From: Escherichia phage vB_EcoS_OddieOddie | Sequence record: OL539454.1 | Direction: 5' to 3' (one strand) | Length of the DNA stretch: 59,985 nt | Shown: in pieces, positions 34,458-56,373 of the stretch | How the letters are laid out: each line of letters begins with the position of its first letter | How positions within the stretch are numbered: position 1 is the stretch's first letter | Notes under the pieces: model-generated | Told to the model about the DNA's origin: nothing | The model's database searches: none | What the model saw: only the letters and a program-made list of their open reading frames with translations | Position numbers and translations under genes: made by a program

Positions 34458-35270
34458 TTACAAGCCGTTCAGGGCTTCCGGTACTGGTACAGGTACGCGA
34501 CCAGTCACACCATTAAATTTCTTCCAGCGTGCATACTGGGTTTTAACAGTATCTTCGTTCAGACCGTGACGACCAGCCAGGTTCAGAACATAAGAGATCG
34601 GGGCAGGCTGACCCAGCGTAGCGCTAATCTGGTCCATCAGAGCCCAAGCACGACCGCAGGAAGTTTCCGGTTGCGGACGGCGAACACCGTTCTGTTCCGG
34701 CATACGATTAGCTTCTTTTTCTTTCTCGCGGAGCTCTTTAGCGCGTGCTTTTTCCGCTTCTTTTTCTGCCTGTTTTGCAGCACGGATCTTGTCTTTGAAG
34801 CCTTTAATAGTAGCTTCCAGACCATCCACCAGACCCTGAGCAGAAGTTACAGCACCGGACAGGTCTTCACCTTTAGACTTCTTAACGACAGCTTTCAGCT
34901 CTTTCAGAGCTTCTTTAATGGTCTTCAGGTTTGCAGATCCCTGAGTTTCTGCTTCCGTGATCTGTTCAACAGTGCTTTCGTCGGTGACGGTAGCCAAAGA
35001 GTTTTTCAGGATTTCAGCAGCGTTAGCAATCGCATTAAATTTGTTTTCCGCTTCAGTGCGGATTTCAGCTTGTTTCTTTTCAGCGGCAGCTTTTTTCTCT
35101 GCTTCTTTTTTCTCTTTTGCTACGCGTGCAGCTTCAGCGGCAGCGGCTTTCTTAGCTTCTGCATCATTCACAGTAGCTTCTTTCTTTGCAGGTTTAGCAG
35201 ATTTTGCAGCGGCGGCAGCAGCGGCTGCGGCAGCAGCTTTTTTGTCTTCAATGTTGCTCATTCTCTTCAC
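34458..35270 (-). CDS. Lys/Ala-rich low-complexity protein (histone-like DNA-binding candidate)
   Basis: 270-aa ORF with 12-residue poly-Ala run and K/A/E repeats, then a non-repetitive C-terminal domain. Confidence 0.45.
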   Translation of the reverse strand: MKRMSNIEDKKAAAAAAAAAAAKSAKPAKKEATVNDAEAKKAAAAEAARVAKEKKEAEKKAAAEKKQAEIRTEAENKFNAIANAAEILKNSLATVTDESTVEQITEAETQGSANLKTIKEALKELKAVVKKSKGEDLSGAVTSAQGLVDGLEATIKGFKDKIRAAKQAEKEAEKARAKELREKEKEANRMPEQNGVRRPQPETSCGRAWALMDQISATLGQPAPISYVLNLAGRHGLNEDTVKTQYARWKKFNGVTGRVPVPVPEALNGL

Positions 35271-35883: not shown

Positions 35884-35942
35884 TGCAATCCCCTATAAAT
35901 AAGTAATGCCCCAATAGTAGGGGCATTAGATGTTGAAGTCAA

Positions 35943-51351: not shown

Positions 51352-51965
51352 TTATGCGTCCAGACCGTTATATTTGCGCCAGGCGTAGAACTGAATGGCT
51401 ACCGTAGTCCCGTTGTAAGAAGGCATTGCAGCTTTCATCTCTTTCAGCTCCGGCGTGCGGCCCAGTTCAGCTAAAAGTTTGTCGCCCATTGCCCACACTT
51501 CGGCAGTTTTTCCTTTCAGCGGCTTGCGAGCGCCATTTTTGAAATCACAGCGAGCAGCTTTTACATCCTGTTTTGGCGCGGCAGCTTTTGGCTCTTCAAT
51601 TTTGATTTCAGAAACCTGCGTGGCAGCTTTTGCGTGTTTCATATCTTTCTCTTCCTCCTGCTCCAGAGCTTCGAGGCAGCTTTTGACAATTTCCGGATTT
51701 ACCATCGGGCGCAGTACCGAGACGCTAGCAGCTGGCGCGGCGGTCGGTGCTGGGACTTTCTGCTCGGGCTTTTGAGCTTTTTCGTGATCGCGCAGCACCT
51801 GAAGCACTTCCTTCTCGATGATGTAAAAACCAATATCGTCCTGATGGATTAGCTGTTCGTGTGCATCGCGTGCAACCTGACCCCAGCGGGTCTTAAGGGC
51901 GCGGCGTGCATTCGTTTTCATGGTGTAGCGCATTTTGTCCTGTTCGCGGTGAGTTACTTTAGACA
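51352..51965 (-). CDS. hypothetical protein
   Basis: Longest ORF extends to 52011; ATG at 51965 has SD AGGAG; charged, helical. Confidence 0.45.
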
Positions 51966-52039: not shown

Positions 52040-52288
52040 TTATTGCACGATTGCTACGAAATCGGCGTTCGCGATACCCATACTTGCGAAAGCAACAATG
52101 CCATAGTCGGTGTCGTTGTCCGCGTTAAACGCTTTGAGGAACTGCTGTACCGCTGCTTTATGGTTAAGCGTTACGTCGATAGCATAGTCCCAGCTATAGA
52201 CTTTGCGCTTGCCAAAACCTTTAACTGCAATGCGTGCGCCTTTGGTGTTAGTTGGTGCCAAAAATTTGGTGACGATAGAAGTAGCCAT
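52040..52288 (-). CDS. hypothetical protein (first gene of leftward arm)
   Basis: 82-aa ORF with SD GAGGA. Confidence 0.45.
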   Translation of the reverse strand: MATSIVTKFLAPTNTKGARIAVKGFGKRKVYSWDYAIDVTLNHKAAVQQFLKAFNADNDTDYGIVAFASMGIANADFVAIVQ

Positions 52289-52751
52289 GATGTAATCCTC
52301 GTTTTGTTTAAGTTGACTTATTATTGCCCAGTCAGATCAACTAGGCAAGATATAAATCACTTAATTTGTACTAAATCGTATTCCTTGTAGATGTCGCTAA
52401 TGTACATATCGAACTGGCCCATTAAGAAGATTTCGGCCTCCTCCCAGCTTGGGGCAGATACATAACCAGCTATTTTACCGGACTCGAGTTCCACTAATTT
52501 GAATTCCATGATGCAACCCTTAATGTGGTTAAGCAGTATTGCTTTGTTGAAGTAATAATAGCCTTACATCGTGATATTGAATAGGCCAAAAGTGCTATTT
52601 TGATATTGTTTTGCATCTAATGAAAATTATGCTTGCCATGCATATTTAGCACTAATGGCCTAACTAACATCACATTATCTGGAGTATTCGCGCGGGCGCA
52701 CACATACATATAAAGCTGCCAAATATTTTTATAAAAAGATGCAAAAAGGTG

Positions 52752-52791
52752 TAGACACATGATCGGTCTAGCACTACTATATACACATACC
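52752..52791 (+). promoter_or_regulatory. candidate early promoter, copy 1
   Basis: TAGACA-CATGATCGGTCTAGCAC-TACTAT about 40 bp upstream of the 52829 gene. Confidence 0.4.
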
Positions 52792-52828
52792 GCAAGGGTA
52801 CTACAAATTAACTTAAAGGGTTCACATC

Positions 52829-53113
52829 ATGTCCATCGTTACTATGTCGTTCTTCGACCATTGCAATAACGAAAAACAAATTATCGTTAACCTGCAAAAA
52901 GGGTTGGTTGTTGCACGCAATGCTAACCGTCAATGCATCGCGCTAACCGATTTTGCTTTCCGCCTTAACGTGGACAACACCACCGCCAAAAATATCGTTC
53001 ACGATACAGCGATGGAAGCCGCTCATGCTGCGAAGGATAAAGGTATCCGTGCCGCACGCGAAATCATGCACAAAGCGCTCGGCATCACGTTCTTCATCGG
53101 CATTAAGGGGTAA
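52829..53113 (+). CDS. hypothetical early protein
   Basis: 94-aa ORF, first gene of rightward early arm. Confidence 0.45.
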   Translation: MSIVTMSFFDHCNNEKQIIVNLQKGLVVARNANRQCIALTDFAFRLNVDNTTAKNIVHDTAMEAAHAAKDKGIRAAREIMHKALGITFFIGIKG

Positions 53114-53259
53114 CTACTATGGCACGCAAATACACGCTTACACGCGCACAGCACGCGTTATTATTGCAGGTTATGCGCATGGAGTACGAAGAGACTACAT
53201 GGGCGCAGGCTATGCAAACTGGGCGCGAGTTCTACGCGCAATTAATAGCACAAAATGCC

Positions 53260-53300
53260 TAGACAACATGATCGGTCTGGTGGATACTACACACATCAAC
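53260..53300 (+). promoter_or_regulatory. candidate early promoter, copy 2
   Basis: TAGACAACATGATCGGTCTGG shares a 20-bp core with 52752-52772; upstream of ATG at 53321. Confidence 0.4.
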
Positions 53301-53320
53301 CAAACAACGGGGTAAACAAA

Positions 53321-53560
53321 ATGCGTAGTTTCAAATGTGTAAGCGTAAACGATAATGCTAAGGCTAGTGCTAAGGGTCTGTTCACAGTAGGTAAAGTGTA
53401 TGACTTCAACATGGAAAGTTATATACACATGACCCTCACGGGCGTAATGTTCGGCGACGTTGGTGCTGTACGCTGCGAGTTAAACAAGTACACGGAAAAG
53501 GAATATGCCCTTATCAGCCGCTACACGGGCGAGCCGTTAGCTGTGTTCCATGCAGCTTAA
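53321..53560 (+). CDS. hypothetical early protein
   Basis: 80 aa from the internal ATG of ORF 53255..53560, chosen because the repeated promoter-like element overlaps the longer 5' extension. Confidence 0.4.
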   Translation: MRSFKCVSVNDNAKASAKGLFTVGKVYDFNMESYIHMTLTGVMFGDVGAVRCELNKYTEKEYALISRYTGEPLAVFHAA

Positions 53561-53587
53561 GCTATAACGCACACAGCGCCACGCTAG

Positions 53588-53626
53588 CGAGCTAATGCAC
53601 AAAGGCAATGGTAATGCATTAGCTCG
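53588..53626. repeat. perfect 12-bp inverted repeat with 15-nt spacer
   Basis: CGAGCTAATGCA ... TGCATTAGCTCG. Confidence 0.7.
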
Positions 53627-53636
53627 GGCGAAACAG

Positions 53637-53706
53637 GCGCACAGCTTCGCGCACAGCTCGCACAGCGCACACCGACCCACGCAGGCCCAGCCGCGCGACC
53701 CGACCC
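53637..53706. repeat. GC-rich short tandem repeats
   Basis: GCGCACAGC-like units x3-4 followed by CGACCC x3. Confidence 0.65.
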
Positions 53707-53993
53707 ATCCTTTTCCAGGTACTTGGAGCGCTGGGCGTGCCCTGTCCATCCTGATAGTAAGTGCTTGTCTAAATCTCACCCATCACTTTACTATCCACCT
53801 ACATCCATGACCCCACCTACCTTCTTTTTGAATATATACAGCTCATTTCTTCTAAATATATGGATTTTGGTAGTAAATTCTGAGTCGTCAACGTATAATT
53901 CGTCTTGTAGCTTCTCCATAGCTACCATCTTTAAGCGATGCAACCAATTTCTAGTTAATCTCATCAGTTCCAGAGCATTTTCGGAGGTATTTA

Positions 53994-54531: not shown

Positions 54532-54582
54532 TTATCAATCTATAATGGGCTCTACGGAGCCCTTAATTATCTGGAGGTTGTT

Positions 54583-55980: not shown

Positions 55981-56373
55981 ATGCTATTAGTCGTCACCGG
56001 AGGTCGAGATTTTAAGCATGTGGATTATATTTATGCTCAACTGGATAAGCTGCATATGCAAAGAAGGATAACCACACTTCGCCACGGTGACGCTGACGGT
56101 GTTGACCGGATTTGTGCACATTGGGCGGAGCGCAACGGTATTACGACAGAAGCGTTCCCTGCCCCGTGGGACAATCTTTCCTTACCAAATACCAAGATAC
56201 GGTATAACGCCAAGGGTGCTTATAATGCACAAGCTGGCGCATACCGTAACCAATTAATGCTGGATACTGATCCTAAACCAGATCACGCTATTGTGTTTCC
56301 TGGCGGAGCTGGTACTATGGATATGTACAGACGGATTAAAGCATCCGGTATCCCTTACACATTAGCGGAGTAA
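55981..56373 (+). CDS. Rossmann-like hypothetical protein (possible SLOG/DUF2493-like)
   Basis: 130-aa ORF starting LLVVTGGRD, with HGDADGVD and FPGGAG motifs. Confidence 0.4.
   Translation: MLLVVTGGRDFKHVDYIYAQLDKLHMQRRITTLRHGDADGVDRICAHWAERNGITTEAFPAPWDNLSLPNTKIRYNAKGAYNAQAGAYRNQLMLDTDPKPDHAIVFPGGAGTMDMYRRIKASGIPYTLAE

Follow-up and report, generated by a model that had tools for sequence, protein, structure and literature searches.

Two probable sigma-70-type promoters upstream of consecutive rightward genes in a Seuratvirus genome

The rightward gene arm and its repeated element

The window analyzed here is the whole 59,985-nucleotide stretch of Escherichia phage vB_EcoS_OddieOddie (OL539454.1), a near-complete Seuratvirus genome of ~60 kb from the CAjan/Seurat-like E. 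coli siphophages. It shares 90-95% identity over 4 kb with 32 of the 34 matching phage records, nearly all of which are Seuratvirus; this genus belongs to the subfamily Queuovirinae and includes CAjan, Seurat and the BASEL phages Bas21-25. Structural genes occupy the + strand from position 1 to ~23.6 kb, and DNA-metabolism and 7-deazaguanine genes the - strand from ~25 to 52.5 kb. From 52.8 kb onward the + strand carries small genes and then, up to its end, lysis genes. The leftward arm begins with a gene start at 52509, the rightward arm with one at 52829, which places the first of the two elements described below (P1) in a 319-nt divergent intergenic region. The second element (P2) lies further to the right.

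The first gene downstream of P1 encodes 94 residues (52829-53113, +, phrog_28005) and is followed by a 47-aa gene (53119-53262, +, phrog_37795), the 3' half of which, from 53170 on, belongs to the exchangeable cassette that carries P2. The gene downstream of P2 encodes 79 residues (53321-53560, +) with no family match; relatives have either of two other genes at this place, or lack the gene along with P2. A terminator-like hairpin at 54547-54562 is compatible with a short operon served by P1 and P2.

Immediately beyond the P2 gene is a stretch of ~430 nt (53561-53990) with no convincing + strand ORF. It contains a perfect hairpin with a 12-bp stem (53588-53599 / 53615-53626, z = -2.6, no U-run) and GCGCACAGC-like repeats, 7 of whose 12 matches in the window fall within 53144-53673, with 4 of these at 53637-53673. 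Local GC content reaches 65-69%, compared to 44.5% genome-wide, and a C-rich, G-poor tract follows at 53700-53850. Relatives show mosaicism in this stretch, which gave no Rfam match; candidates for its role are a Rho-dependent terminator, a non-coding RNA, iterons and a packaging site. Across the window, no known RNA families (Rfam) or tRNAs were detected.

An initial annotation of the sequence had noted a repeated, promoter-like element upstream of consecutive rightward genes, and the repeat is real. Copy 1 reads TAGACA-CATGATCGGTCT, that is TAGACACATGATCGGTCT, at 52752-52769 on the + strand, and copy 2 reads TAGACAACATGATCGGTCT at 53260-53278, also on the + strand. The gapped repeat pattern matches twice in the window, against 0.00 matches expected from 100 dinucleotide shuffles, and an exact 13-mer, ACATGATCGGTCT, is common to both copies (52757-52769 and 53266-53278). 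The similarity reaches further upstream, where a local alignment of 52741-52769 with 53248-53278 has 26 of 31 columns identical and scores 33, compared to 15.0 +/- 2.5 and a maximum of 28 in 2000 shuffles. Measured from the end of the core, the distance to the next start codon is 60 nt for P1 (ATG 52829) and 43 nt for P2 (ATG 53321), in agreement with the 40-60 bp given originally.

Mismatch and regex scans of the window, allowing up to 3 mismatches, gave no third copy above the chance background, and none of the 27 relatives that we compared carries more than two. Scanning IMG/VR for exact matches to the element yielded just 3 contigs, of which one is unrelated. Few further loci came from two IMG/VR scans anchored on proteins, and the distant loci among them lacked a TAGACA-N17 element.

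Anatomy of the two promoter-like elements

P1 has the layout of a sigma-70 promoter. Its -35 hexamer, TAGACA (52752-52757, +), matches TTGACA at 5 of 6 positions. This is followed by a 17-nt spacer, CATGATCGGTCTAGCAC (52758-52774), whose first part, 52758-52769, is the repeated core and contains GATC, and by the -10 hexamer TACTAT (52775-52780), with A at position 2 and T at position 6. Upstream of the -35 is an A/T-rich stretch (52721-52751) that is highly conserved in window-type relatives; in eleven relatives the block of homology begins at 52721. Within this stretch an A-tract at 52743-52747, about -44 to -40, resembles the proximal subsite of the UP-element consensus and may correspond to one. 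Judged from the distance to the -10, transcripts would start near A52787, giving a predicted leader of 52787-52828. This leader contains the Shine-Dalgarno sequence AAAGGG (52815-52820), with the ATG at 52829 coming 8 nt later, and is predicted by folding to be unstructured (z = +1.3). Its sequence is conserved among relatives as far as 52813, beyond which they have different genes.

The divergent region also carries a perfect 10-nt inverted repeat, TTTTGCATCT / AGATGCAAAA, at 52609-52618 and 52737-52746, which flanks its variable middle and places its right arm just upstream of the P1 -35. This repeat is probably not essential, since it is not conserved in KS_A8/CAjan-type alleles (AGTGCAAAA).

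P2 overlaps the end of the preceding gene: the 47-aa ORF terminates in a TAG (53260-53262) that is also the opening TAG of the -35 hexamer TAGACA (53260-53265, +). The P2 spacer, ACATGATCGGTCTGGTG (53266-53282), has one base more than that of P1 at its 5' end and one less at its 3' end; the indel is thus compensated and the spacer keeps 17 nt. At this spacing the -10 hexamer is GATACT (53283-53288). TACTA-type -10 sequences had been proposed for both elements, a description which is right for P1 but not for P2, where the overlapping TACTAC (53285-53290) lies 19 nt from the -35 and is missing the final T, making GATACT the better candidate. Phage yong3 has CATAAT exactly at the GATACT position, and the 17-nt register also aligns the bases past the two -10 hexamers (ATACACAT and ACACACAT). 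One metagenomic variant, GGTACT, would destroy the A at -11; it speaks weakly against the GATACT register and makes this assignment less certain than that of P1. The position of the -10 suggests a start near A53295 and a predicted leader of 53295-53320, which is unstructured in folding predictions and contains the Shine-Dalgarno sequence GGGG (53309-53312).

A longer ORF, running from ATG 53255 across P2, is annotated in KS_A8, SeppeHuegi, KS_W4, WildeMaa and SD04. In 6 of 16 sources, differences of 1-2 nt in leader length put this ORF out of frame with the gene that follows, and in yong3 it is interrupted by an in-frame stop codon. Thus P2 is non-coding and the true start of the gene is 53321. 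The leader itself is likewise non-coding, given a 1-nt indel among the relatives.

Both copies therefore combine a TTGACA-like -35, a TATAAT-like -10 with A at position 2 and T at position 6, and a spacer within 17 +/- 1 nt, and both match the sigma-70 consensus at 9 of 12 positions. Both are co-oriented with downstream genes that have Shine-Dalgarno sequences, and their hexamers and spacing are constrained among relatives, as described below. Consensus matches of this quality are only slightly commoner than chance (28, compared to 20.6 +/- 4.7 expected in 10 kb), and so the promoter case rests on the comparative data and not on matching alone. Genome-wide, promoter-like matches likewise occur at close to the chance level. 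A match to TTGACT-N17-TACTAT at 35904-35942 (-) turns out to be part of a strong terminator hairpin, whose stem and loop (TAATGCCCC TACTATT GGGGCATTA) supply it, which illustrates how unreliable consensus promoter matches are in this genome.

We consider it likely that the two copies are related, paralogous promoters of the sigma-70 type, read by host E. coli RNA polymerase across their 17-nt spacers. In this model, host E-sigma70 at P1 would start rightward transcription near 52787 into the 94-aa and 47-aa genes, and P2 would start or reinforce transcription near 53295 into the 79-aa gene. The spacer identity between P1 and P2 would then reflect shared descent or recent exchange between the promoters, in a direction that we can only suppose, and not a second function. 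This simple reading does not account for the non-consensus A at position 2 of the -35 (TAGACA, not TTGACA), which is invariant in the aligned copies. We also compared P1 and P2 with the sigma-70 promoters of coliphages without their own RNA polymerase (T5, T1, T7 A1-A3). These share the 5/6 match at the -35, the 17-nt spacer, A-11/T-7 and the upstream A-tract, and like P1 and P2 they precede small genes and are conserved only in hexamers and spacing. They differ in that the -35 of the window promoters is invariantly TAGACA rather than TTGACA, and in that the window promoters are predicted ones.

Constraint on the hexamers and turnover of the spacer

We compared the window to 27 relatives, giving 28 sources in total; these phages are close to one another and mosaic, and their copies therefore do not count as independent samples. 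TAGACA-N17-TACTATATA was found at the P1 position in 28 of 28 sources. Among the window-type P1 alleles (n = 21), the two hexamers showed no differences at all, and the spacer had a mean pairwise difference of 0.164 per site, with 8 of its 17 sites variable and its length always 17. Third codon positions in three neighboring genes showed 0.08-0.13 differences per site. The spacer thus turns over at or above the rate of third codon positions while the hexamers are fixed, indicating that the hexamers and their spacing are constrained, and not the 20-bp core. Allelic P1 spacers include CATGATCGGTCTAGCAC, TATGATCAATCTAACCC and CATGATCGATCTAGCGC. At P2, present in 15 of the 27 relatives, the -35 is invariant in 16 of 16 sequences including the window.

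The most divergent P1 alleles come from five Seurat-type phages, which have TAGATCAAGTCATGTCG-like spacers identical to that of the window at 5 of 17 positions. Between 52602 and 53102 of the window, BLAST detects no similarity to their flanks. Despite these diverged flanks, P1 retains the two hexamers, the spacing of 17 nt and the ATA that follows the -10; by our own arithmetic, the chance of finding the 15-base pattern in a 448-nt intergenic region is ~4e-7. A four-way alignment of the most divergent copies has TAGACA, A-11 and T-7 among the invariant columns of the promoter core. The conservation of P1 in these alignments is the signature expected of a sigma-70 promoter and the opposite of that expected of a sequence-specific site in the core.

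These comparisons bear on the suggestion that the repetition of a 20-bp core points to a dedicated class of promoter or to a binding site for a regulator, which is not supported. The repeated 18-19 bases consist of the -35 hexamer and 12-13 bases of spacer, and these spacer bases vary in orthologous P1 copies. The part of the element that had seemed striking is its least constrained part. Each genome has at most two copies, the second absent in 12 of 27 relatives. Neither the 20 neighboring proteins scanned nor the annotation of KS_A8 revealed a regulator, and the annotation also lists no sigma factor or RNA polymerase.

The more specific proposal, that the core is an operator at which a phage or host protein binds the dyad TAGAC-N9-GTCTA in the -35/spacer region and controls the two promoters jointly, in the manner of lambda repressor at PL/PR, could draw on several observations. 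The two promoters have an exact 13-mer in common, the non-consensus TAGACA is invariant, imperfect dyads are present in P1 (TAGAC-N9-GTCTA) and P2 (AGAC-N10-GTCT), and partial repression has been speculated for the divergent promoters of phage 9g (PMC4276943). However, the dyad spacing is unequal, with N9 in P1 and N10 in P2, and the half-site in the spacer varies among orthologs (GGTCT, AATCT, AGTCA, AGCCA) at or above the rate of third codon positions. In at least six relatives a diverged spacer at P1 occurs beside the standard spacer at P2, and in those phages the core is thus not common to both promoters.

The neighboring proteins likewise offer no recognizable candidate for such a regulator, though one might exist among the small proteins of unknown function. 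Pfam and PHROGs scans of 20 of them found only families of unknown function plus one YspA/SLOG domain, with no helix-turn-helix or other regulator domain, and the Pharokka annotation of the close relative KS_A8 contains no transcription regulator, RNA polymerase or sigma factor. The 82-aa leftward protein (52040-52288, -, phrog_3199) is 36% identical to 9g gp36 (L037, 4394-4639), which carries the note "TetR family transcription regulator"; neither this label nor a DNA-binding domain finds support in Pfam or in sequence searches of the PDB. PDB sequence searches with the 204-aa and 82-aa leftward proteins were uninformative. With the evidence on both sides considered, we regard an operator in the core as very unlikely.

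Further similarities to 9g and CAjan proteins were seen in this part of the genome. Phage 9g has a second paralog of gp36, gp34. Two window proteins, at 51358-51630 (-) and 34497-34760 (-), have a C-terminal domain in common with 9g gp37 (37% and 31% identity; phrog_22313), and one phrog_22313 member lies three genes from the divergent promoter region. The protein at 55981-56373 (+), called "putative DNA binding protein" in CAjan, matches the YspA/cpYpsA-related SLOG family (PF10686, E = 6e-18) and not a DNA-binding domain.

Two smaller features of the spacer recur among the alleles. GATC is retained in nearly all spacers and lost in two alleles, and a short dyad, (A)GAC-N9/10-GTC(T), recurs, being reduced to GAC/GTC or lost in other alleles. 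In view of both, a weak extra constraint on the spacer is conceivable. We found no case for regulation through Dam methylation at GATC, which is lost in these two alleles and is not depleted genome-wide (216 observed, compared to 203-229 expected). Alternative sigma factors, including sigma-S, find no support either, as the base at -13 varies among alleles when judged by eye.

A long conserved core upstream of genes is also reminiscent of T7-type or N4-type promoters, and 9g has a gene noted as a "potential sigma factor" (gp40), so that the element might be a promoter for a phage RNA polymerase or sigma factor, or else a structured DNA or RNA hairpin signal. This is largely refuted. The KS_A8 annotation lists neither enzyme nor factor, gp40 of 9g has no homolog in the window, and the core is not conserved among orthologs. 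The predicted folds of the two elements are no better than those of shuffled sequences (z = -1.2 and +0.05), and neither gave an Rfam match. We consider this explanation extremely unlikely.

The repeat could lastly be a functionless remnant of duplication, or chance, given that short repeats in two copies often arise by chance and that P2 is dispensable, being absent from 12 of the 27 relatives. Against this stand the zero matches expected in shuffled sequence and the invariance of hexamers and spacing where spacers and flanks have diverged, and we give this explanation next to no weight.

Mosaic junctions and comparison with other phages

The ends of BLAST blocks between the window and its relatives cluster at 52713/52721, 52813-52836, 53113, 53169-53178, 53323 and 53561/53564. 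The first of these lies just upstream of the A/T-rich stretch of P1, the second covers the end of the P1 leader and the start of the gene, 53323 falls at the ATG after P2, and 53561/53564 at the stop of the gene downstream of P2. The breakpoints thus gather where the promoter-leader modules and the P2 gene begin or end. Across the relatives, at least two different first genes follow P1 with its leader, and three genes follow P2 with its leader: the 79-aa MRSFKC..., a 52-61-aa MLILIMM... and a 156-aa MYNAI.... P2 and its gene form a cassette that is present in 15 of 27 relatives and absent in 12; in CAjan-type phages ~85 nt take the place of 53170-53563, which holds P2 and its gene.

P2 is almost identical in phages with very different P1 alleles, which suggests that the module has spread by recombination. 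A hybrid P1 in SA80RD (L030, about 1648-1690) combines window-type upstream and spacer sequence with a WildeMaa-type leader, with the junction at TACTATATA, the -10; it is direct evidence of recombination inside the promoter. No hybrid between P1 and P2 was found in the 27 relatives. We infer either a recent common origin of P2 and the window's P1 allele or an exchange of sequence between them. Each promoter and its leader behave as a conserved module at mosaic junctions, joined to different genes in different phages.

We compared these modules to the promoter-early stem-loops (PeSLs), the mobile regulatory cassettes of T4-type phages (Arbiol et al. 2010, PMC2839356; Comeau et al. 2014, PMC4122927). 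Like PeSLs, P1 and P2 are repeated sigma-70-like promoters in a variable, ORFan-rich region, with junctions of insertion, deletion and replacement at the modules. Unlike PeSLs, they have no stem-loop terminator, occur in two copies and not many, belong to a siphovirus and have yielded no recombinants between copies. It is worth asking whether the two copies serve mainly as substrates for recombination, as mobile regulatory cassettes that shuffle small genes in the manner of PeSLs, an idea which is compatible with their being promoters. The documented precedent in T4-type phages, the breakpoints at module edges, the alternative downstream genes of P1 and P2, the replacement in CAjan-type phages, the SA80RD junction at the P1 -10 and the near-identity of P2 beside very different P1 alleles all favor the idea. 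However, there are two copies and not dozens, neither copy is adjoined by a stem-loop or terminator, P1/P2 hybrids are absent from the 27 relatives, and phage mosaicism in general commonly places junctions where genes start or stop, with no need for a special cassette. We judge a mainly recombinational role to be unlikely.

The cassette of P2 and its gene also resembles a moron, as a unit that is present or absent between conserved neighbors and brings its own promoter. It differs from morons in having no closing terminator, in also replacing the 3' end of the 47-aa gene, and in residing in a virulent and not a temperate phage. A search for a terminator at the end of the cassette gave none, the hairpin at 53588-53626 being outside the cassette. 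Two bolder possibilities may be considered together: that TAGACA, GATC and the (A)GAC-N9/10-GTC(T) dyad mark a small regulon of an unrecognized factor, or that the modules are a siphovirus counterpart of PeSLs that drives cassette exchange in the ORFan region of Seuratvirus. We regard these as distinctly unlikely.

A related arrangement has been described for phage 9g (Nonagvirus, same subfamily), in which divergent promoters, Pl and Pr, were predicted in an intergenic region and the rightward arm was read as late (PMC4276943). Like Pl and Pr, P1 lies in a long non-coding region between a leftward DNA-metabolism arm and a rightward lysis/packaging arm, at the same genome position. In contrast, there is no sequence similarity, and the 9g rightward arm was interpreted as late and not early. 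The TAGACA-N17-TACTAT element is absent from the divergent region of 9g (L037, 5820-6240). That region has several copies of TATAGTA(A/G), which reads TACTATA on the other strand, and three ATACCAGGTA repeats.

The comparison with 9g affects how the genes downstream of P1 and P2 should be described. The initial annotation called them early, a label that is an assumption, since the equivalent 9g arm, with its lysis and morphogenesis genes, was read as late (PMC4276943). Our literature searches found no transcription data or transcriptome for a Seuratvirus, and initiation, strength and timing at P1 and P2 are predictions. In CAjan virion DNA, dPreQ0 replaces G in GA and GGC contexts (PMC7544227). 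If the phage of the window modifies its DNA as CAjan does, TAGACA, GATC and GATACT would each carry a modified G upon entry of the DNA into the cell.

Taken as probable sigma-70-type promoters, P1 and P2 are an ordinary feature, newly documented for the Seuratvirus group, and nothing in the finding challenges current understanding. They provide two well-supported promoter annotations for Seuratvirus genomes, which current records lack; the SA126VB record annotates other promoters and not P1. The start codon of the gene downstream of P2 is fixed at 53321. A repeated "core" between two promoters can be mere inherited spacer DNA. Finally, the promoter-leader modules mark junctions at which small genes are swapped, which makes them useful for reading mosaicism in these phages and for choosing sites for phage engineering.
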